A stretch of 40,147 bases of DNA, from positions 1 to 40,147 of the forward strand of contig JBAZOX010000001.1 of NCBI GenBank assembly GCA_041648535.1, read 5' to 3'. Numbering within the stretch: position 1 is the stretch's first letter; every line of letters starts with the position of its first letter. Below, piece after piece: positions 1,226-32,569 of the stretch. This stretch comes from Desulfobacteria bacterium. Its GTDB lineage: Bacteria > Desulfobacterota > UBA8473. The position numbers and the translations under genes are program-made. The notes under the pieces were generated by a model. It did not search any database. It had not been told where the DNA came from and worked only from the letters and a program-made list of their open reading frames with translations.

Positions 1226-1418
1226 GTAACTATTCAGGCACAAAGAGACAAAGGCACATAGGCACAAAGTTGTAGGAATACGATCGGAATGCAGGACATA
1301 ACCTGTCCAAATACCGCTTTGTAAACATTTTATAGGAACTTAATCAACTCATTCTCTTCAGATCTCTCGACTTTGTGCCTTTGGTGCTCTGTGCCTTTGT
1401 GCCTACCTGAGTAGTAAC
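1226..1418. repeat. Heptamer-hairpin element A (GTAACTATTCAGG ... CCTGAGTAGTAAC ends, GGCACAAAG-type arms, about 95-nt centre)
   Basis: The arms ggcacaaagagacaaaggcacataggcacaaag and ctttgtgcctttggtgctctgtgcctttgtgcc are imperfect reverse complements. The end motifs are shared with the elements at 3280, 14832, 15040, 19547 and 26098. Confidence 0.75.
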
Positions 1419-3279: not shown

Positions 3280-3400
3280 GTAACTATTCAGGTAGGCACA
3301 GAGCAGAGCGGAGCAGGGTCGTGAATCGTGAAGCGTGAATCGATTTACGATTTACGGATTACGAATTTGTGCCTTTGCCACTTTGTGCCTGAGTAGTTAC
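3280..3400. repeat. Heptamer-hairpin element B (GTAACTATTCAGG ... CCTGAGTAGTTAC)
   Basis: The 13-nt terminal inverted repeat has one T/C difference. It has nested arms: GGCACAGAG / CTTTGTGCC outside and CGTGAAT x3 / ATTTACG x3 inside. Confidence 0.8.
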
Positions 3401-4673: not shown

Positions 4674-5423
4674 ATGGAGCTGGGACAGTTAAAACGCTTG
4701 TTAGAGGGGGTTAAAAAAGGGGATGTTGGGATTGACGAAGCATTGGAGTCGTTAAAGACCTTACCCTTTGAAGACATTGGTCATGCCACCATTGATCACC
4801 ACCGTCATTTGAGGCTCGGATTCCCAGAGGTAATATTCGGCGAGGGGAAGTCTGATGGGGATATCATAGCCATAGTCCAAAGGATGATTGAGAAGGGAGA
4901 GAATATTTTAGTAACCAGGGTGGAGAAAAAAAAGGCCATTAACATAAAAAAGGCCTTTCCAAAGGCAAAATACCATCCAAAACCACGAGCAATTACAATA
5001 ATAAATCAGCAAATAAAAAAGGAGGGGAAGGGCACTATCCTGATCATAAGTGCCGGAACCTCAGATATCCCCATTGCTGACGAGGCTGTACTTGTTGCTG
5101 AGATGATGGGTAACCGGGTAGATCGCCTTTATGATGTGGGAGTTGCCGGTATACATCGGTTGGTAAGTCAGCGGGAAAGGCTTTTGCAAGCCAGTGTCCT
5201 GGTGGTTGTGGCAGGAATGGAAGGGGCACTGCCAAGTGTAGTTGGTGGACTCGTATCGAAACCGATCATTGCAGTTCCTACCAGCATTGGCTATGGAGCA
5301 AATTTTGGCGGAGTGACTGCTTTACTTGGGATGCTGAATTCCTGTGCTCCTGGGGTTGCCGTGGTGAATATAGACAATGGCTTCGGGGCAGGATATATTG
5401 CGGGCTTAATAAATAAGGTTTGA
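4674..5423 (+). CDS. larB: Nickel-pincer cofactor biosynthesis protein LarB (AIR-carboxylase-like)
   Basis: Contains DHHRHLRLGFPEVIFGEGK and the C-terminal SAGTSDIP...AGMEGALPSVVGG...PTSIGYGA motifs. Confidence 0.8.
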   Translation: MELGQLKRLLEGVKKGDVGIDEALESLKTLPFEDIGHATIDHHRHLRLGFPEVIFGEGKSDGDIIAIVQRMIEKGENILVTRVEKKKAINIKKAFPKAKYHPKPRAITIINQQIKKEGKGTILIISAGTSDIPIADEAVLVAEMMGNRVDRLYDVGVAGIHRLVSQRERLLQASVLVVVAGMEGALPSVVGGLVSKPIIAVPTSIGYGANFGGVTALLGMLNSCAPGVAVVNIDNGFGAGYIAGLINKV

Positions 5424-5427
5424 TAAA

Positions 5428-5574
5428 GTCATAAAAAGTCAAAAATCAGACGGCACAGTAAAAAGCTCCAGATGTAAGGCGCGCAAATCCGAAGGAATGA
5501 GGCGTACTTACCTGTACGCTGCAATAACTGAGGATGCAGCGGAACGCCGCAGATGGACTTTTTACGAAGCCGTC
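5428..5574. repeat. MITE-like palindromic repeat, copy 2 (with 36-nt central insertion)
   Basis: It matches the reverse complement of 2081-2185, with extra tacttacctgtacgctgcaataactgaggatgcagc at 5505-5540. It creates the false N-terminal extension of the 5534 ORF. Confidence 0.8.
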
Positions 5575-6766: not shown

Positions 6767-6993
6767 AATATTTTTGTTAAGGAGAATTAAAAAGGGTTTG
6801 ACAGATCAAAAGTTAGAGTATCCACACCAAGTGCCGATATCACCCCCAAAATGGGAGTATATCAGTACTCAGAGTGCTGATGTAAACAAGATACCCAAAA
6901 TGCCGCTACGCTTGAATGTCTACGGGTATATATAGTGTGTAGGAATGCAATAAAGGTAAGTAAACTGTGATGATATATAATAGGAGGAGGGTT

Positions 6994-7242
6994 ATGCCTT
7001 CACCAGTTTTGAGTCAAATCGAGAAAGTGATTGACCATTTATCTCGTGAGGAGCAGTTATGGTTGATTGAACAACTTGCTCATCGCTTGCAAGAAGACTC
7101 AATGAAAAGCAATACAGTTGAACAGACCGTTTTCGAGAGCCAACTTGTTGCGATGGCAATGGATCGCGAGATTCAGGCCGAGTTGCAAAAGATTGATCAA
7201 GAGTTTGCTATAACGGAAGCGGATGGACTGAAGAGTAGATAA
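6994..7242 (+). CDS. Antitoxin-like protein (addiction-module component type, not AbrB/MazE-like)
   Basis: AGGAGGAGG precedes the ATG at 6994. It carries a LSREEQLWLIEQLAHRL motif. Its stop overlaps the toxin start (TAATG). Confidence 0.55.
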   Translation: MPSPVLSQIEKVIDHLSREEQLWLIEQLAHRLQEDSMKSNTVEQTVFESQLVAMAMDREIQAELQKIDQEFAITEADGLKSR

Positions 7243-7589
7243 TGGCCATTCATCGAGGAGAGATTTATTTTGTCAATTTGAATCCCGTGAAGGGACGAGA
7301 GCAAGCGGGACAACGTCCAGTATTGGTTTTATCTGTAAATGCCATTAATAAACTACCTCTTGTGGTCACGGTTGTTGTTGGAACAAAGGGCGAAAACATT
7401 TCTCGTGATTATCCGACAAATGTCCGTGTATCGCCAGAAGATAGTGGTTTGCAGATAGAGACAGTTTTCTTATGCTTTCAAGTTCGATCATTGGATCCCA
7501 AACGGTTTCCCGAAAAACCGGCTGGCAAGGTTTCAGATGAGGTATTAAAAAAGATTGAGATGGCCGTTCGTTACTGCCTTGGTCTGTGA
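7242..7589 (+). CDS. mazF: MazF/PemK-family endoribonuclease toxin
   Basis: RGEIYFVNLNPVKGREQAGQRPVLVLS matches the PemK/MazF N-terminal signature. Confidence 0.8.
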   Translation: MAIHRGEIYFVNLNPVKGREQAGQRPVLVLSVNAINKLPLVVTVVVGTKGENISRDYPTNVRVSPEDSGLQIETVFLCFQVRSLDPKRFPEKPAGKVSDEVLKKIEMAVRYCLGL

Positions 7590-9602: not shown

Positions 9603-10871
9603 ATGCATATAATCGTAGTAGGTTTAAATCATAAGACGGCTCCTGTTGAATTGAGGGAAAGGCTGTACTTTCCATCAGAAAACATTGAAGAGCCTCTGAA
9701 AAGGGTAACAAGCCTACCACAGATTAGCGAGGCACTGATACTCTCTACCTGTAACAGGGTAGAGATTGTAGCAGTTACCAGAGATATTCGAGAAGGGACA
9801 GAGGAAATCAGGAATTTCCTGTCTTCCTATCACGGTATACCAATGAGCCAGTTAGATTCCTGCCTGTACTCTTATGACTCTTACGACGCTATTAAGCATA
9901 TCTTCCAGGTTGCTTCCGGTTTGGATTCTATGATTGTGGGAGAGCCTCAGATTTTAGGCCAGCTTAAGGATGCCTATAGCCTGACTAACAAGTATAAAAC
10001 CTCTGATGTAATACTCCATAGGTTTCTTCATAGGGCTTTTTCAGTTGCCAAAAAGGTAAGGACGGAGACCAAAATCGCTACGTCTGCTGTCTCTATAAGC
10101 TATGCCGCTGTTGAATTGGCCAAAAAGATTTTTGATACCTTAAAAAATAAGGTTGTTATGCTTATTGGCGCGGGAGAGATGTCTGAACTTGCAGCCAGAC
10201 ATTTACTGAACCATGGGGTTAAGGAAATTCTGATTGCCAACAGAACATACAGCAGAGCAGTAAAGTTAGCAGAAGAGCTGGGTGGCAGACCTGCTGTTTT
10301 TGAAGATATTACCCTGTTTCTGGACCAGGCAGATATTGTAATAAGTTCTACCGGCTCTGCCCATTATATCATAAGGTCTGATGATGTGGTAAGAGTCCTT
10401 AAGATACGAAAGCACAAACCTATGTTCTTTATTGATATTGCCGTCCCCCGAGATATTGACCCCAAGATAAACGATATTAGCAATGTCTATCTTTACGATA
10501 TAGATGACCTGGAAGGGCTAGTTGATTCCAATATAAAAATGCGGGAGGAAGAGGCCAAAAAGGCTGAAAGGATAATAGAGAAGGAAATAGGACAATTCAA
10601 TAAATGGTTGGGGACTTTAAGCGCTGTTCCTACGGTTATCTCCCTCAGGGAAAGGTTCGAGGAGATCAGGAAGAAGGAGGTAGAAAAGACCATTTCCAGT
10701 TTGAATGGAAGTTCAAAGGTTGATGTAAAGGCGCTGGATGCCCTTACCACTTCAATTATTAATAAGATACTTCACTATCCTGTGACTCAATTAAAGACGC
10801 TGGATAATACCCGTGAGGGAAATTACTTTGTTGATGCCGTGAGAAAACTGTTCGACTTAGAAGAGAAATAG
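9603..10871 (+). CDS. hemA: Glutamyl-tRNA reductase
   Basis: Contains VVGLNHKTAPVELRE, STCNRVE and GEPQILGQ motifs. Confidence 0.9.
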   Translation: MHIIVVGLNHKTAPVELRERLYFPSENIEEPLKRVTSLPQISEALILSTCNRVEIVAVTRDIREGTEEIRNFLSSYHGIPMSQLDSCLYSYDSYDAIKHIFQVASGLDSMIVGEPQILGQLKDAYSLTNKYKTSDVILHRFLHRAFSVAKKVRTETKIATSAVSISYAAVELAKKIFDTLKNKVVMLIGAGEMSELAARHLLNHGVKEILIANRTYSRAVKLAEELGGRPAVFEDITLFLDQADIVISSTGSAHYIIRSDDVVRVLKIRKHKPMFFIDIAVPRDIDPKINDISNVYLYDIDDLEGLVDSNIKMREEEAKKAERIIEKEIGQFNKWLGTLSAVPTVISLRERFEEIRKKEVEKTISSLNGSSKVDVKALDALTTSIINKILHYPVTQLKTLDNTREGNYFVDAVRKLFDLEEK

Positions 10872-10875
10872 CTTA

Positions 10876-10948
10876 GGTGGATAGACTGTAGACTGTTAGG
10901 CTGTAGGCTGTAGCCTAACAGCCTTCAGCCTATAGCCTAAACAACCTG
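10876..10948. repeat. Heptamer-hairpin element C (CTGTAGG-type, inverted orientation, terminal motifs missing)
   Basis: ttaggctgtaggctg (10895-10909) pairs with cagcctatagcctaa (10926-10940). It is homologous to the reverse complement of 15040-15121. Confidence 0.7.
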
Positions 10949-10977
10949 TTGTACTTGACATTAAAGGAACTATTATC

Positions 10978-12306: not shown

Positions 12307-12360
12307 AGGGTTGAGAGAAGTCAGGGGTCAGGGTTCAGAATAATTATATAGGGGGGAAAA

Positions 12361-14610: not shown

Positions 14611-14685
<75 letters not shown>

Positions 14686-14736: not shown

Positions 14737-14841
14737 TACTGCTTCATTATGTAAATATCTCCATTCGGCATTCTTTTCTTCAATAAGCCTCAATTTCCAT
14801 GGCCCGCCCCACTTCTTTATCTGCTTTTCTCGTAACAGCTC
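14737..14841 (-). pseudogene. C-terminal remnant of a GIY-YIG (YhbQ/UPF0213-like) nuclease gene
   Basis: ELLREKQIKKWGGPWKLRLIEEKNAEWRYLHNE resembles the conserved REKQIKKW..K..LIE..NP.W.DL tail. The GIY-YIG N-terminal half is absent, and the 5' part of the ORF is read from hairpin element F. Confidence 0.55.
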
Positions 14842-14938
14842 AGGTTCAAAGTTCCAAGGTTCACGGTTCAAGGTTAGACTGATGAAATATGAAGAGCACA
14901 AAGTAGCCAGCCGTGAACCTGACAACCTGAGTAATTGC
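14832..14938. repeat. Heptamer-hairpin element F (GTAACAGCTCAGG ... CCTGAGTAATTGC; GGTTCAA/GTGAACC arms)
   Basis: The left arm and centre are homologous to 26098-26203. Confidence 0.7.
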
Positions 14939-14951
14939 CAAAAGTTTTACT

Positions 14952-14978
14952 TAAAGTTTTTCACTTCTTTGCCGATTT
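14952..14978 (+). promoter_or_regulatory. Sigma-28 (FliA) promoter, copy 1
   Basis: TAAAGTTT, 11 nt, GCCGATTT. It is paralogous to 16769-16795. Confidence 0.65.
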
Positions 14979-15039
14979 AATACTTAGGTTGTTGCATAGG
15001 TTAAATTTGTTGCTATCGGTTCATTGGTTACATACGGTA

Positions 15040-15121
15040 TCACTACTCAGGTTGTTTAGACTGTAGGCTGTTAGGTCACAGGCTAACAGTCTACAGCCTA
15101 TCCACCCGAGCAGTTACTGTT
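15040..15121. mobile_element. Heptamer-hairpin element D inserted in the duplicated leader, flanked by CGGTA direct repeats
   Basis: The filled site is cata-CGGTA-[82 nt]-CGGTA-aaggg. The paralogous empty site at 16848-16860 is cata-CGGTA-aaggg. Confidence 0.7.
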
Positions 15122-15138
15122 CGGTAAAGGGATAAAAC

Positions 15139-15246
15139 ATGTCCGAGTTATTTTACTCCATCTCTGAGGTAGTTGATTTATTCTCAGGGGAAAGGTTATT
15201 CCTGTCATTGATCTACGATTGAAGTTCGGTATGGACTCACTCGAAT
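15139..15246 (+). pseudogene. Chimeric remnant: first 16 codons of the HTH gene fused to an internal cheW fragment
   Basis: 15123-15182 matches 16853-16912, and 15183-15246 matches cheW 17438-17501. The fused frame stops after 27 codons. Confidence 0.75.
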
Positions 15247-15286: not shown

Positions 15287-16771
15287 ATGTTGGAGAATAT
15301 GAAACTGGGAACAAAGATTATGGGCGGGTTTATTATTGTATTGGTTTTAACAGGGGTGATCTCGTATGTGGGTTGGGATGGCATGCGGGGTGTGGTGGAC
15401 AGGGTAGAGAAGGCCGACGATATGAACCGCATGGTCAAAATGATCCTACAGGCGCGTCGACACGAGAAGAATCTCATCATAAGGGAAGACAAGAAATACA
15501 TAACAGAGGTCAAAAAAGAGGTCAACGATTTGAAAAAGCAGGCCAAGGAGACGAAGGATAAATTGGAAGACCCTGTAAACAAGAAGCAGATGGATGAGGT
15601 TCTGATAGCGGTTGACAAGTACGAAAATGCCTTCGCTAAGCTTGCCGAGATTGTGGGAAAAATGATGGAGAAGGAGGAGCGGGAAAAACTCATTAGTGAA
15701 TTGGACAAAGGCTTAGCTGAGACAGGGAGGACAGTTGAGAAAGAGTGCGCTGATGCCCGTGCCGACCAGAAGAAAAAAATGGAGGCACAGATGGCAAGGG
15801 CTAATATGCTCATAATCGGCGGATCCTTAGTGGCTATCGCATTGGGACTAGGAATGGCATTTTTTGTAACCCTAAGCATCACAAAATCTATTAATCGGGT
15901 CGCAGAAGGCCTTACCGATGGTGCGGATCAGGTGGCTTCGGCCTCTGCACAGGTTTCCTCATCCAGTCAGTCCCTGGCAGAGGGAGCTTCGGAACAGGCC
16001 TCTGGGTTGGAGGAGACCTCATCTTCGATCGAGGAGATGGCCTCTATGACCAAGCAGAATGCCGATAATGCCAATCAAGCCAACGCCCTCATGGCGGATA
16101 CAAGCAAGGTGGTGGAGGAAGCCAATCTTTCAATGGTGGAATTGACAGAATCAATGAAGGATATCTCAACGGCCAGTGAGGAGACGGCCAAGATCATCAA
16201 GACGATTGATGAGATTGCATTCCAGACCAATCTGTTGGCCCTGAATGCGGCCGTGGAGGCGGCCAGGGCCGGAGAAGCAGGAGCCGGATTTGCGGTGGTG
16301 GCTGATGAGGTGAGGAATCTGGCGATGCGTGCTGCGGATGCGGCCAAGAATACAGCCAATTTAATCGAAGGCACAGTCAAGAAGATCAAGAATGGTTCGG
16401 ATATTGTGGCAAAGACAAATGAGGCTTTTGGGAAAGTAGCAACAGGGGCCAAGAAAGTGGGTGAGCTGGTTGGAGAGATTTCAGCCGCCTCGGATGAACA
16501 GGCTCAGGGAGTTAATCAGATCAACAAGGCCGTAGCCGAGATGGATAAGGTGGTGCAGCAGAATGCGGCCAATGCGGAGGAGTCGGCTTCGGCGTCAGAG
16601 GAGATGAATGGCCAGGCGGAGCAGATGAAAGAGTTTGTCGGAGACCTGGTTATGCTGGTAAGGGGCAGCAATGGAAATGGGGACATCTGCAGGAGTCAGG
16701 GTAGTAAGGCCGGAACAGGTCATTCCCTTGGAAGAAGATTTTATGGATTTTTAGAAAGAAATTTTACTTAA
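15287..16771 (+). CDS. Methyl-accepting chemotaxis protein 1 (helical periplasmic sensor, no HAMP; C-terminal tail out of frame)
   Basis: It has two TM segments and the conserved tip [38 protein letters not shown]. The last roughly 28 residues do not match the paralogues, but the +1 frame does. Confidence 0.85.
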   Translation: MLENMKLGTKIMGGFIIVLVLTGVISYVGWDGMRGVVDRVEKADDMNRMVKMILQARRHEKNLIIREDKKYITEVKKEVNDLKKQAKETKDKLEDPVNKKQMDEVLIAVDKYENAFAKLAEIVGKMMEKEEREKLISELDKGLAETGRTVEKECADARADQKKKMEAQMARANMLIIGGSLVAIALGLGMAFFVTLSITKSINRVAEGLTDGADQVASASAQVSSSSQSLAEGASEQASGLEETSSSIEEMASMTKQNADNANQANALMADTSKVVEEANLSMVELTESMKDISTASEETAKIIKTIDEIAFQTNLLALNAAVEAARAGEAGAGFAVVADEVRNLAMRAADAAKNTANLIEGTVKKIKNGSDIVAKTNEAFGKVATGAKKVGELVGEISAASDEQAQGVNQINKAVAEMDKVVQQNAANAEESASASEEMNGQAEQMKEFVGDLVMLVRGSNGNGDICRSQGSKAGTGHSLGRRFYGFLERNFT

Positions 16772-16795
16772 AGTTTTTCACTATTCTGCCGATAT
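16769..16795 (+). promoter_or_regulatory. Sigma-28 (FliA) promoter, copy 2
   Basis: TAAAGTTT, 11 nt, GCCGATAT. It lies 74 nt upstream of the HTH gene. Confidence 0.7.
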
Positions 16796-16868
16796 TAATA
16801 TCAGGTTGTTGCATCGGTTAAATTTGTTGCCATTGATTCATTGGTTACATACGGTAAAGGGATAAAAC

Positions 16869-17084
16869 ATGTCCGAGTTATTTTACTCCACCTCTGAGGT
16901 AGCTGATTTATTCGGGATCAATAGGGTTACAATTTATAGGTGGGTAAAAAAGGGGAGAGTAAAAGCGTATAGGATCGGTAAGCATATTAAAATACCTGTT
17001 TCCGAGGTGGAGAGATTAGGGAGGGAATTCGGTTTGCCGGAAATGATCTTTCCCGGATGCCTTCAAGTTAAGTGCCTAAAGTGA
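16869..17084 (+). CDS. Excisionase-family (MerR-superfamily) helix-turn-helix DNA-binding protein
   Basis: STSEVADLFGINRVTIYRWVKKGRVKAYRIGKHIKIPVSEV is the classic excisionase-type HTH pattern. Confidence 0.75.
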   Translation: MSELFYSTSEVADLFGINRVTIYRWVKKGRVKAYRIGKHIKIPVSEVERLGREFGLPEMIFPGCLQVKCLK

Positions 17085-17233
17085 GCTAAAGTTTAAAGTG
17101 CCTAAAGTTATTTAAAAAGGAAATTCCTATACTATGAGCTTAAACAGAAAGAATGAACTGAGGGAAAACAGGTAGATGACTGTTAGTTGGTGAAAAGACG
17201 TTTTTAAAATATGAAAAAAGGAGGTCTTCAATT

Positions 17234-19546: not shown

Positions 19547-19628
19547 GTTACTACTCAGGTTGTTTAGGCTGTAGGCTGAAGGCTGTTAGGCTACAGCCTA
19601 CAGTCTAACAGTCTACAGCCTATCCATC
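19547..19628. repeat. Heptamer-hairpin element E (GTTACTACTCAGG left end; CTGTAGG-type arms)
   Basis: It is in the same orientation and subfamily as element D. The right terminal motif is absent. Confidence 0.7.
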
Positions 19629-19655
19629 TTATATGGAACAGGGGGGTAAATTGAT

Positions 19656-21263: not shown

Positions 21264-21272
21264 GCTTTATAT

Positions 21273-21296
21273 AACAGCGGGCTTAAGCCTGCTGTT
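21273..21296 (+). terminator. Strong hairpin after MCP3 (no clear U-tract)
   Basis: AACAGCGGGC and GCCTGCTGTT form a 10-bp stem with a TTAA loop. Confidence 0.4.
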
Positions 21297-21331
21297 GTAA
21301 TTACTGTGAACTGTGAACCGTGAACTGTTAC
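21297..21331. repeat. Short TGTGAAC-heptamer repeat bounded by GTAATTAC / GTTAC
   Basis: gtaattac tgtgaac tgtgaac cgtgaac tgttac. It has no complementary arm. Confidence 0.5.
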
Positions 21332-25085: not shown

Positions 25086-26093
25086 ATGAGAATAACTTCA
25101 TTCATGCTATTTGATCAGATGAGAAAGTCTTTCCAGAATAATCTCGGTGAGATGTCTGGAATGTATAATAAATTGTCCTCAGGCAAGAAAATAGGTAAGC
25201 CTTCAGACGATGTAATTGGTATGATGAGGGCAATGGATCACAAATTGAGTATAAACTACAATGAACAATACAAAAGAACTATAGATGATGCTGTTGCCCA
25301 TATTAACTTTGCGGAGACTATTACATCATCCGTCTCGAACGCATTGGTAAGGGCAAAGGAGCTTGCGCTTAGCGGCGTTACAGGAACAGCGTCTGCTGAA
25401 ACCAGGGCATCTATCTCAAAGGAAATAGCTCAACTTAGAGACCAGATTCTTAGCCTGTCAAACAGCAAGTTAGGAGACAGGTATATGTTTTCCGGACTCA
25501 GGACCGATACACAACCATTCAATTCTACTACCTTTAATTACCAGGGCGACTCAGGGATAATTAATGTAATGATAGATAAAAAAGCAGTGATGCCAATAAA
25601 TGTTCCAGGCAGTGATGTATTCAGTTACACCTTGAGTGCAGAAGATGTGATTCAACTCAGCGACGGTAAATATGTACACTACATCCCTGGGGCCGGAACC
25701 ACTATAAATGTGGAGATCCGGGATACAGATGATACAACAGTCCTTGATAGTTTCAGTTTTTCCAATTTCATCCAGATGACAGATGTCCTGAACTCCGCAC
25801 TGAAAGATAACAATCTCCTTAGAATAGAGGGAATACTTAAACCGCTTGATAACGCGCATAACCAGGCTATAAATATTCAGGCAGATACCGGTGGGAGGCT
25901 TAACCGCCTGAATGACCAGAAGACAAGGCTTGACGAGGGCAACCTAAACCTGAAGACTCTCCTATCTAACACAGAAGATGCGGATATGGCTGAAATTGCA
26001 AGTGAGCTTGCAAAGGCAGAGGCCGTCCTCCAGGCATTGAGACAATCATCAGCAAGGGTGCTCTCCCAGTCGTTGCTGGATTTTCTGAGATAA
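25086..26093 (+). CDS. flgL: Flagellar hook-associated protein 3 FlgL
   Basis: MRITSFMLFDQM...SSGKKIGKPSDD at the N-terminus, and a flagellin-like C-terminus (ALRQSSARVLSQSLLDFL). Confidence 0.85.
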   Translation: MRITSFMLFDQMRKSFQNNLGEMSGMYNKLSSGKKIGKPSDDVIGMMRAMDHKLSINYNEQYKRTIDDAVAHINFAETITSSVSNALVRAKELALSGVTGTASAETRASISKEIAQLRDQILSLSNSKLGDRYMFSGLRTDTQPFNSTTFNYQGDSGIINVMIDKKAVMPINVPGSDVFSYTLSAEDVIQLSDGKYVHYIPGAGTTINVEIRDTDDTTVLDSFSFSNFIQMTDVLNSALKDNNLLRIEGILKPLDNAHNQAINIQADTGGRLNRLNDQKTRLDEGNLNLKTLLSNTEDADMAEIASELAKAEAVLQALRQSSARVLSQSLLDFLR

Positions 26094-26097
26094 CCAT

Positions 26098-26203
26098 GTA
26101 ATCAGGTTCAAAGTTCCAATGTTCACGGTTCACGGTTAGAAAACGATGAAGAGTGTAAGACGGGAAACCCTGAACCTTGAACTCTGAACCCTGAACCGTT
26201 AGG
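26098..26203. repeat. Heptamer-hairpin element I (GGTTCAA / TGAACC arms)
   Basis: gtaatcaggttcaaagttccaatgttcacggttcacggttag ... ccctgaaccttgaactctgaaccctgaaccgttagg. It is a homologue of element F. Confidence 0.7.
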
Positions 26204-26438: not shown

Positions 26439-26876
26439 ATGGTACGGTTTGAGACATCAAGGTTCGGGATATTAGAGGTTGATGAAAAAAAGACTATAAC
26501 TTTCCCCGAGGGCATTCTGGGATTCCCTGATATTAGACATTACATCTTAATGGACCATAAAGATACCCACCTTAAATGGCTTCAAGCAGTGGATAACCCT
26601 GATGTAGCATTTATAGTGGCAGCATCATCAATCCTTTCTCTTGACTATTCAAGAGAGCTTGATGCTGCCACAAAACAATGCCTTCAGCTTGAAAAAGATG
26701 AAGACCTTGTAATACTCGTAATTTTGAGGGTGGAAGGCGAGAAGGTGATACCCAACTCTCAAGGTCCTATACTACTGAATGCCAGCCGTATGAAGGGCAT
26801 GCAGGTCGTTCTGGAAAAGATCGAAGCCGGCAGATCCTCTCAAGCCTCCTTCCAAAGAACTAACTCAGGTAGATAG
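26439..26876 (+). CDS. fliW: Flagellar assembly factor FliW
   Basis: Contains ITFPEGILGFPD...WLQAVDNPDVAFIV...NSQGPILLN...MQVVL. It lies immediately downstream of csrA. Confidence 0.85.
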   Translation: MVRFETSRFGILEVDEKKTITFPEGILGFPDIRHYILMDHKDTHLKWLQAVDNPDVAFIVAASSILSLDYSRELDAATKQCLQLEKDEDLVILVILRVEGEKVIPNSQGPILLNASRMKGMQVVLEKIEAGRSSQASFQRTNSGR

Positions 26877-26938
26877 GCTGAAGACTGTTAGGACACTTCA
26901 GACTTCTATTGATAACTGCCATGCCTTTATCAGCTCAA

Positions 26939-26980
26939 AGCTCAAAGCTTTCACCTTTGAGCTTTCACTTTTCACTTTTT
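26939..26980 (+). terminator. Hairpin plus T-rich tract after fliW (inside a repeat-rich spacer)
   Basis: agctcaaag (26939-26947) and ctttgagct (26955-26963) form a 9-bp stem, followed by ttcacttttcacttttt. Confidence 0.5.
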
Positions 26981-26996
26981 ACCTTTATGTAACCCC

Positions 26997-28025: not shown

Positions 28026-28047
28026 AAGGGCTGTTTAAATGGAAGCA

Positions 28048-28140
28048 GCGTTAGCGGTTAGCAAAAATACCTGTTTTAACGGATAGCGTCTTTTTACCCC
28101 GCTCCTGTCAACCAGGGGCGGGGTGCCTAACCGCTAAGAG
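28048..28140. repeat. Nested palindrome downstream of flagellin (GTTAGCG-type outer arms, GC-rich inner hairpin)
   Basis: The outer pair is ttagcggttag (28051-28061) and ctaaccgctaa (28127-28137). The inner pair is ccccgctcctg (28097-28107) and caggggcgggg (28113-28123). Confidence 0.6.
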
Positions 28141-28160
28141 CTGTCTGCTAAGAAGGAGGT

Positions 28161-30777: not shown

Positions 30778-30961
30778 TCAATACCAACCCGCAATACCCC
30801 GCCCCTCTTCTCATACATTTTACAAAAAATCTTTACGCCGGAGAGTAGATTTCTAGAAGACCAGGTCTGGTTTGGAATAAACCTTGCTGTATCCTTAATA
30901 TGTGCTCCCCTTAACCAAAGTTAAATATATAGGTTCATCTCCCAAAGAGTTGGTCGATAAA

Positions 30962-31138
30962 AAGGATTCAAGGGGTCGAGGATTCGAGGATTCGAGTGAA
31001 ATGCTCAGGAATTATAGAAATTATAGAGATTGAAGTGTTATCGACATCTTGATGTTATCCGATAGTTTAATAATTCGGGAAGCCTTTGAAAAAAAAGTTG
31101 CCTGACAACTGATCCCTGACCCCTGTGAACTGTCACAG
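30962..31138. repeat. Hairpin-armed element containing a decayed four-helix-bundle protein gene
   Basis: The left arm is ttcaaggggtcgagg with AGGATTCG repeats, and the right arm is cctgacccctgtgaa. Between them, MLRNYRNYRD stops, then LKCYRHLDVIR continues in another frame, resembling ..NYRDL.VY... N-termini. Confidence 0.5.
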
Positions 31139-32404: not shown

Positions 32405-32414
32405 TGAGGAAAAA

Positions 32415-32549
32415 ATGACGACCTCGTAAAAAGTCAAAATTTACCAGCTTTTGTCATTCCGGGCTTGACCCGGAATCCAGTATTTTCGAATAGTTGTGGA
32501 TTCCGGCTTTCGCCGGAATGACGGGGAGGGAGACTTTTTACAGCGTCAT
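32415..32549. repeat. MITE-like palindromic repeat (ATGACG..GTAAAAAGTC ends; GTCATTCCGGGCTTGACCCGGAATCCAG core)
   Basis: The terminal inverted repeats are atgacgacctcgtaaaaagtc and gactttttacagcgtcat. There is an internal inverted pair, cattccgg..ccggaatg. It shares GTAAAAAGTC with the 2081 and 5428 copies. Confidence 0.75.
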
Positions 32550-32569
32550 TAATTTTGGGAAGAGTTTTT

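Follow-up and report, generated by a model that had tools for sequence, protein, structure and literature searches.

Intergenic hairpin elements with ISBst12-group ends in a Desulfobacteria contig: probable miniature inverted-repeat transposable elements

Described systems and the elements of the window

Bacterial MITEs (miniature inverted-repeat transposable elements) such as Correia, RUP, Chunjie, MITEAba12 and Nezha are small, non-coding and intergenic, have terminal inverted repeats (TIRs) and a target-site duplication (TSD), and are predicted to fold into hairpins; their sites occur filled and empty, and they are presumed to be mobilised in trans by a related insertion sequence (IS) (PMC3184786). 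Here we describe hairpin elements of similar form in a 40,147-bp contig of a metagenome-assembled genome (MAG) labelled 'Desulfobacteria bacterium' (proteins MFA49094xx; GC 43%); this whole stretch was analysed and is referred to as the window. The elements are small, multi-copy, dispersed and free of open reading frames (ORFs), have matching TIRs and vary in presence between related genomes. Given that their conserved termini are TIRs of the ISBst12 group (IS66 family) and that they measure 79–193 nt without an ORF, we consider it very probable that these hairpins are transposase-less MITEs of that group.

The described families differ from the present one in several respects. In Chunjie the TIRs measure 21 bp and the direct repeat 9 bp (PMC3184786), and Nezha is linked to ISNpu3, with one copy showing a 10-bp direct repeat (PMC6042816). 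Nezha was considered as a member of the same family, which is unlikely given the reported 10-bp repeat; it is set apart by its description (PMC6042816). BrickBuilt of Porphyromonas gingivalis resembles the window elements in that the body of the MITE is a tandem array of variable copy number, so bacterial MITEs with an internal tandem array have been known before. BrickBuilt is made of 23-nt direct repeats between small inverted ends and belongs to a single species (PMC4596501), whereas the window family has 7–8-nt units arranged as two complementary arms and a TIR family that extends across many phyla. The cyanobacterial STRR heptamers and the TAACTGA repeats of Beggiatoaceae, for which a role in translational regulation has been proposed, are also intergenic tandem heptamers of variable copy number (PMC4679880). 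Those repeats are direct arrays without TIR, TSD or palindromic partner arm, whereas the window arrays lie inside transposon ends in a Desulfobacteria MAG host, and only two window sites (E12 and E13, below) are plain direct arrays. The likeness to STRR proposed in the initial annotation of this DNA is therefore superficial.

In the searchable literature we found no ISBst12- or IS66-derived MITE and no report of this TIR; an exact-sequence search for the TIR gave chance primer matches only, and IS66 is mentioned in neither a 2024 MITE review nor a survey of 183,232 genomes. The MITE family is new, its kind is well known, and what is unusual is the microsatellite fold-back body that it has in some lineages. 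In eukaryotes, Foldback (FB) transposons have long inverted arms of short tandem repeats in variable number and short conserved termini. These are much larger and belong to a different transposase superfamily, and the resemblance is one of form, not homology.

The degenerate 13-nt end motif has 14 matches in the window (at most two mismatches) compared with 4.8 expected, a number reached in none of 100 shuffles, and its core, ACTAYTCAGG, has six exact matches compared with 0.10 expected. The impression that the termini are conserved is borne out by this non-random distribution. The 13-bp TIR of the family, GTAACTRYTCAGG, is found at both ends of every complete copy, around a fold-back interior. 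At least one recognisable end is present at eight sites, E1–E8. A single family had been claimed for at least eleven sites; eight of them hold, while those at 26931, 28048 and 30962 lack the ends. Tandem Repeats Finder placed arrays of 7–8 nt where the initial annotation had them, and folding was assessed by z-scores of single-stranded DNA folding energy against shuffles. The interiors are of three types, namely GCACAAAG (E1, E2), CTGTAGG/CTGAAGG (E3, E5, E6) and GGTTCA[AC]G (E4, E7, E8).

E1 (1226..1418) is a complete copy of 193 nt with the TIRs GTAACTATTCAGG (1226-1238, 13/13) and, in reverse complement, GTTACTACTCAGG (1406-1418, 12/13). Its arms are GCACAAAG-type 8-mers on either side of a 99-nt unique loop, and the flanking 8-mers, TATTAGTT and CCTTAGTT, match at 6/8 positions. 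E2 (3280..3400), which had been described as a long imperfect palindrome with 7-mer arrays, is indeed a 121-nt imperfect palindrome and a complete copy, with the ends GTAACTATTCAGG and CCTGAGTAGTTAC (both 13/13) and a fold of −22.7 kcal/mol (z = −5.2). The outer arms of E2 are GGCACA(A/G)AG units, within which a nested hairpin is formed by three CGTGAAT and three ATTTACG units; no TSD surrounds it (flanking 8-mers 1/8). E4 (14832..14938) is a GGTTCAA-type copy of 107 nt (z = −3.1) with the TIRs GTAACAGCTCAGG (13/13) and, in reverse complement, GCAATTACTCAGG (11/13), likewise without a TSD (flanking 8-mers 2/8). The 79-nt CTGTAGG-type copy E5 (15039..15117) has the TIRs ATCACTACTCAGG (11/13) and, in reverse complement, GTAACTGCTCGGG (12/13); its flanking 8-mers, CATACGGT (15031-15038) and TGTTCGGT (15118-15125), match at 5/8.

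The other four copies are less well preserved. E3 (10865..10954) is of the CTGTAGG type, inverted relative to E5 and E6, and both of its ends are decayed to the remnants GAAATAGCTTAGG, which overlaps the hemA stop codon (10869-10871), and CCTGTTGTAC. It is 95.8% identical to E6 (19547..19640; z = −6.8), where only the left TIR, GTTACTACTCAGG, is recognisable and the right one is lost or decayed. E7 (21264..21331) is the right half of a GGTTCAC-type copy with the right TIR CGTGAACTGTTAC (12/13) and an internal hairpin, AACAGCGGGCTTAAGCCTGCTGTT, plus GTGAAC heptamers. Finally, E8 (26090..26203) is a GGTTCAA-type copy with two decayed ends, the left remnant ATAAC..TAATCAGG overlapping the flgL stop codon (26091-26093) and the right remnant being CCTGAACCGTTAG; it folds weakly better than shuffles (z = −1.7). 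Most copies in the window are old: the TIRs of E1 and E2 are intact and those of E4 and E5 slightly mutated, while E3, E6, E7 and E8 are decayed or one-ended fossils.

Shared ends, target duplications and filled sites

ISDge4 of Deinococcus geothermalis, a member of the ISBst12 group of the IS66 family, encodes a single 449-aa transposase and has the TIRs GTGACTACTCAGCA and GTAACTGCTCAGCA with an 8-bp direct repeat (PMC12898284, 2026). On the sequence of the Geobacillus plasmid pHTA426 we read an IS66-like IS with the ends GTAACTATTCAGCCC and GTATCTATTCAGCCC and the TSD AACTCGTC. GTAAC...-type TIRs bound eight further plasmid ISs, most of them with 8-bp TSDs, from Chloroflexota, Deinococcota, Bacillota, Gammaproteobacteria, Actinomycetota, Cyanobacteriota (two) and Halobacteria. 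End and TSD are GTAACAATTCAGCC and AATTATTT in the Chlorohelix plasmid IS, GTAACTGCTCAGCA and TAAAAATC in that of D. wulumuqiensis, and GTAAGGATTCAGGT and GAATCCAG in ISAva2; no TSD was found for the plasmid ISs of B. thuringiensis (end GTAACTACTCAGCTT) and Oceanisphaera (end GTAACTATTCAGCTT). A ninth plasmid IS, from Niveispirillum, had no clear GTAAC-type ends.

We also fetched 80 metagenomic loci via the transposase protein (5-sequence alignment), a sample that is unbiased as to end motif. These loci yielded 53 complete ISs, mostly of 1.5–1.6 kb. Their commonest terminal 13-mer is exactly GTAACTACTCAGG (28/106 ends), the consensus taken position by position reads G T A A C T A/G C/T T C A G G/C, and perfect 8-bp TSDs flank 8/53. 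The ends of E1 and E2, GTAACTA(T/C)TCAGG, equal the commonest end of these transposase-anchored ISs and match the plasmid ISs and ISDge4 at 12–13 of 13 positions. The transposase of one such IS (L175) and its relatives contain PF03050 (DDE_Tnp_IS66), PF13005 and PF20042, and at least 8000 relatives of this protein are present in the protein collection. Overall, ISs of the ISBst12 group (ISBst12, ISDge4, the pHTA426 IS, ISAva2, ISH10) and the window family have in common the TIR GTAACTRYTCAG(G/C), an 8-bp target duplication and a wide occurrence in bacteria and archaea. They differ in that the ISs span 1.45–1.63 kb (most of the plasmid sample) and encode one PF03050 transposase of 450–500 aa, whereas the window elements are far shorter and ORF-less.

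The family was sought elsewhere with the two-ended pattern GTAACWRYTCAGG-N70-100-CCTGARYWGTTAC in one genome per species (596 Gb), for which we estimate less than one chance match. The pattern occurs at a minimum of 119 loci, in MAGs labelled as at least 15 phyla, with several copies per locus in some MAGs. Labels of the listed loci comprise Chloroflexota/Anaerolineae, Desulfobulbia, Desulfobacterales, Syntrophaceae, Elusimicrobia, Nitrospirae/Thermodesulfovibrionia, Firmicutes, Verrucomicrobia, Bacteroidota, Zetaproteobacteria, Gallionella, Polaromonas, Gammaproteobacteria, Bdellovibrio, Acidobacteria, Chthonomonadaceae, Fibrobacterota, Deferribacteres and one ANME-1 archaeon. Among 2.9 million viral contigs, no two-ended copies were found in this length range. 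Perfect 8-bp TSDs flank 64 of the 126 two-ended copies among the matches listed; six further copies match at 7/8 and five at 6/8, and a control comparison shifted by 4 nt never rose above 5/8. The duplicated target is AT-rich at its centre, and 8-bp direct repeats of such a target are a signature of DDE transposition. At the level of the family, then, the 8-bp TSD is clear; in the window it is partial (E1, E5).

These features bear on the proposal that the hairpins are REP/BIME- or IS200/IS605-type elements, moved as single strands by a tyrosine (HUH) transposase such as RAYT. The window elements do form hairpins, lie between genes and are dense (8 copies in 40 kb). Even so, such an origin is extremely improbable for elements of 79–193 nt whose GTAAC...TCAGG ends are DDE-type TIRs of IS66/ISBst12 and whose family has 8-bp TSDs. 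HUH elements are not known to make a TSD, and no Y1 transposase was seen among the called genes of the window or its relatives. REPs are 20–40 nt long with a GTAG or CGTC tag (PMC3733652).

Two subfamilies recur in other MAGs. E4 aligns with copies in SURF, Syntrophaceae, ANME-1 and Thermodesulfovibrionales MAGs, and the loop core of the GGTTCAA subfamily, ATGAAGAGCGCAA, is common to E4, to the SURF deltaproteobacterial, Syntrophaceae and Thermodesulfovibrionales MAGs and to the ANME-1-labelled contig, so the interiors do not consist of low-complexity sequence alone. The GCACAAAG subfamily is also found in Desulfobacterales, Nitrospirae and 'Firmicutes UBA' MAGs. As far as sequence comparison can tell, this recurrence suggests that the subfamilies spread horizontally, subject to possible contamination of the MAG bins. 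Some loci (L225 3864-4048; L077 and related Desulfobulbus loci) have composite arrangements with three ends. In one, a MITE is followed by an incomplete repeat of its right arm, which has a right TIR of its own, and in another a short 44-nt end-pair adjoins a full copy; such composites suggest nested insertion or unequal recombination between copies.

In the mechanism that we propose, an IS66-type single-ORF DDE transposase (PF03050), encoded elsewhere, would bind the TIRs and may mobilise the elements in trans in this host. Insertion by an 8-bp staggered cut would produce the 8-bp duplication of an AT-rich target. Purifying selection would then restrict the surviving copies largely to spacers, often immediately at stop codons, and in this lineage the arms would come to consist of arrays of 7–8-nt units that change by whole units, presumably through slippage.

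Comparison with related loci revealed filled and empty sites. Within the window, the segments 14943-15185 and 16763-16920 are paralogous, both representing the 5' region of an HTH_17 gene, and they differ by one clean 87-nt indel that corresponds to E5 (79) plus 8 nt. The empty site matching the E5 insertion (16864..16884; GGTTACATACGGT followed by AAAGGG) lies in the second copy of this duplicated ~160–240-nt segment, and its sequence is also present in the relatives L223 and L226. The duplication of the HTH_17 (excisionase-like) gene covers the upstream region and the first ~20 codons; the upstream copy is truncated and holds E5, and the complete gene has an MCP gene on one side and cheW on the other, likewise in L223 and L226.

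The E2 site, in the spacer between the DAHP synthase and thioesterase genes, is filled in the window and in the Desulfobacterales MAG JACQWO01 (L221), where the copy has the same ends and a different, longer interior of 159 nt. It is empty in L216–L220 (four CG2_30_43_15-type contigs and L220), with unchanged flanking genes. The comparison of strains for presence and absence that had been proposed thus has a positive outcome. The empty site in L216 has 12 extra bases, which suggests an accompanying deletion or recombination between neighbouring copies at E2. At the E6 site, L223 and L226 have a GGTTCAC-type MITE one base away, with the perfect 8-bp TSD AAAATGAG in both; the TIRs of this copy are perfect over 14 nt in L226 (GTAACCGTTCACGG), and its left end is decayed in L223. 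The pattern at the E6 site resembles separate insertions into a single hot spot, or a replacement. E3 is present at the same site in L212–L215, the interior of E7 recurs in a complete copy (L226 3637-3817), and each of the three interior types is represented in the relatives L223 and L225 by copies whose TIRs are intact or nearly so. The closest strain, L001 (99.8% identical), keeps every element, so that no polymorphism is seen at that distance.

A longer element in L221 (10483-10827) has the same type of TIR. It spans 345 nt, with CTGTAGG-type arms and the near-consensus TIRs ATAACTGCTCAGG ... CCTGAGTAGTTTA, and encloses an 84-aa ORF of PF05635 (23S_rRNA_IVP), making it a cargo-carrying transposase-less cassette of this TIR family.

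Several observations weigh against the assignment of the hairpins to ISBst12-group MITEs. Because both ends were demanded in the genome scan, the pattern itself imposes part of the TIR conservation among its hits; the independent evidence consists of the TSD statistic and the protein-anchored IS ends. Phylum labels are those of MAG bins, in which contigs may be misplaced. TSDs in the window are poor (E1 6/8, E5 5/8, E2 1/8, E4 2/8), and several copies with intact or near-intact TIRs in relatives likewise have none. The flanks of E2 are identical in the window and L221, which implies that the TSD was already absent in their common ancestor, and its absence calls for a further event, for example a deletion next to the element or recombination among copies. 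Finally, tblastn was negative for ISBst12-type transposases in the window, in the 820 kb that surround MITEs of other genomes and in ~200 kb of relatives, all small fractions of the genomes, and a resident transposase partner is unproven. Other searches for a partner were also negative: long TIR pairs near MITEs gave one non-IS candidate (L089) and otherwise none, the ORFs beside solo ends (L110, L080, L112) belong to housekeeping genes rather than transposases, and all-against-all ORF clustering of the MITE loci detected no recurrent transposase.

Fold-back interiors and alternative origins

Heptamer stems had been taken as the defining trait of the family, a view that does not survive comparison with other genomes. 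By a strict array test (at least 21 nt of 6–9-mers), tandem-repeat arms are present in 18/126 (~14%) of the listed two-ended copies elsewhere; the rest, among them the abundant Chloroflexota and Desulfobulbus copies, have unique palindromic interiors. No tandem 6–9-mer arrays occur at the ends of autonomous ISs (0/114), which rules out that the arms were inherited from subterminal repeats of a parent IS. We also considered the arms as reiterations of the TIR core, or as extra transposase sites, and rejected this because their similarity to it is not above chance (p = 0.15–1.0, nine units).

Unit number varies even between near-identical strains. The flanks of the E3 site are identical in five genomes, and L213 has three CAGCCTT units (21–22 nt) more than L212, while the E3 loop in the window differs from that in L212–L215. 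At E7 the window has three GTGAAC units, as against two in L225. The simplest source of such variation is probably slipped-strand mispairing within the palindrome, by which, to judge from these alignments, arms would gain or lose whole units and stay self-complementary. The tendency to form arrays seems to be a property of the host or of the process and not of this TIR, because a family with a different end (the E11 type, below) also has 8-mer arms. The interior of the elements has no conserved function, and the heptamer stems are fast-changing filler.

Slippage could also be proposed as the origin of the elements as a whole, which would then be STRR-like microsatellite hairpins that arose in place during replication, with GTAAC...TCAGG ends that are incidental or serve to nucleate arrays. 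The changes in unit number between strains are real, the TIR-less arrays E9, E12 and E13 occur in the same window, and the E11-type family combines 8-mer arms with another end. As an account of E1–E8, in-place slippage is nonetheless very unlikely and already largely refuted. It does not account for identical 13-nt inverted ends at so many loci across phyla, for 8-bp TSDs, for an insertion of 79+8 nt or for a GGTTCAA loop core common to different MAGs, and most family members elsewhere have no tandem arrays.

The position of the elements relative to genes raises a different possibility. Family elements fill ~40% of the window's longer spacers and abut or overlap stop codons, and most copies lie directly 3' of the stop codons of co-directional genes. 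Combined with folds that are better than those of shuffles, this arrangement is what would be expected of Rho-independent terminators, or of 3' hairpins that stabilise mRNA, having evolved at their present sites; the shared ends would then serve the host as a signal, for example for protein binding or processing. A stem followed by a T-run is found at none of E1–E8, the only one reported being a 5-bp stem inside E4, on the minus strand. Nor does the window show an overall excess of terminator-like sites (19 vs 17.4 expected; 14 vs 16.9 expected). Moreover, the same ends bound ISs that carry a transposase, 8-bp TSDs exist, and some relatives have an empty orthologous site between unaltered flanking genes. 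We therefore judge an origin as terminators highly improbable, and the initial suggestion of a mobile element with a defined TIR, rather than ordinary terminators, is upheld by the identity of the TIRs with those of ISs, the TSDs, the filled and empty sites and the lack of a T-tail. A secondary effect of the inserted elements on transcripts, for example as mRNA 3' hairpins, is possible.

Stable folds and conserved ends might also be expected of genes for a family of structured non-coding RNAs. At the gathering score of the covariance models, an Rfam 15 scan of the window matched only the tRNA at 14611-14682, the interiors are unrelated between subfamilies and show whole-unit indels between strains, the elements occur in both orientations relative to genes (E3 vs E5/E6), and promoters are not enriched. 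Such RNA genes are an exceedingly unlikely explanation. Integron attC sites, whose core-site consensus is GTTRRRY, were dropped from consideration because the ends do not fit such core sites and the flanking genes are housekeeping genes.

Returning to MITEs with ISBst12-group TIRs, ISBst12-derived MITEs can be recognised in MAGs of many phyla by the 13-nt TIR combined with an 8-bp TSD; at present they are unannotated there or miscalled as small ORFs, such as the 71-aa 'gene' over the L221 repeat. This is relevant to operon annotation, assembly breaks and strain typing, given that heptamer number varies by strain. The mechanism of IS66 transposition is poorly understood, and biochemical work would be made easier by short natural substrates whose ends are defined. 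A broader interpretation, which we regard as rather doubtful, is that the elements belong to an undescribed, near pan-prokaryotic superfamily of fold-back MITEs that ride on ISBst12-type transposases, with subfamilies that cross phyla and take up cargo. If this were true, they would be markers that resolve strains and would drive the turnover of spacers in uncultured anaerobes, and their arms might be built by a specific hairpin-templated mechanism that the E11-type family, an unrelated repeat of the same host, has in common with them. The elements do not amount to a new biological principle.

Genomic setting and other repeats

Nearly all genes of the window are on the + strand. They include DAHP synthase, larB/larC-like genes, a PemK toxin pair, haem genes, thiD/thiC and tRNA-Thr, as well as a chemotaxis cluster (MCPs, CheW, CheR, CheD, CheY) and the flagellar genes flgK, flgL, fliW, flagellin, fliD and fliS. 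The PemK-type toxin gene (PF02452) and its small upstream partner ORF (6967-7589) lie between larC and a sirohaem synthase gene; at the equivalent place, relatives have a ParE toxin pair and a restriction-modification system. The closest strain, L001, departs from the window (L001 16617-18065; window 16683 onward) within the 3' end of the MCP gene 15287-16771, with single-nucleotide differences clustered in 16438-16675. This divergence is probably due to recombination or assembly switching between paralogous MCP genes.

Three of the sites once assigned to the family are of other kinds. E9 (26931..26990) consists of GCTCAAAG and CTTTCAC arrays that form a short hairpin (z = −4.7); it has no ISBst12-type end, no related copies among the fetched loci, and is unassigned to the family. 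This array had been thought to run into the C-terminus of fliW, which is not the case: the FliW ORF ends at 26876, with its Pfam match ending at residue 127/145, and the array starts at 26931. E10 (28046..28143), 3' of the flagellin gene, is a hairpin with a GTTAGCG stem and a nested GC-rich palindrome (z = −5.2), again without an ISBst12-type end. E11 (30930..31010, + strand) is a half copy of a different foldback family with the end GGTTCATCTCCCAAAGAGTTGGTCGAT and arms of AGGATTCA/AGGAGTCA 8-mers. Contrary to the view that all of the listed arrays are hairpins, its direct array at 30962-31000 does not fold in the window (z = −0.06). The E11-type repeat is a complete foldback in L223 (7560-7700) and has three copies in L221 (5190-5330, ~3700 and ~11650), one of which occupies the site that E1 has in the window.

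Two plain direct arrays are present. E12 (17064..17135, + strand; AAGTGCCTAAAG..) is not a hairpin (z = +1.5 for 17070-17108) and belongs to another dispersed repeat family; the block is a ~75-nt insertion relative to L223 and is 98.6% identical to L085 4751-4822, from a Syntrophaceae MAG. E13 (12320..12345, + strand) is a short GTCAGGG array of two to three units in the thiD-thiC spacer, without a TIR and with one unit more in the window than in relatives. A tandem AAGTGCCTAAAGTATTT array is located at a contig end in L076 (1-60).

A second MITE-like family is represented in the window at 2112-2215, 5419-5499 (inverted) and 32411-32556, and in L216 at 10596-10731. Its members have an inner inverted repeat, ..GTAAAAAGTC ... 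GACTTTTTAC.., a right tail ending in ..TTCATC, and interiors that contain GC-rich palindromes such as GTCATTCCGG...CCGGAATGAC. The copy at 2112-2215 is an insertion relative to L216, L220 and L221, with AAAAGGT at its flanks, and the L216 copy is flanked by ACATTAATGG. Small GC-rich perfect palindromes are nested in element loops and spacers (~11290-11307 in L212, L214 and L215; 28095-28123 in the window; ~7105-7170 in L216), for example CCCCGTTGTACAACGGGG in the E3 orthologue, CCCCGCTCCTG..CAGGGGCGGGG in E10 and, in L216, an insert of ~85 nt, CACCCCCACCCTTCCCC..GGGGAAGGGTGGGGGTG, flanked by AGTTCA; they may be yet another small mobile repeat.

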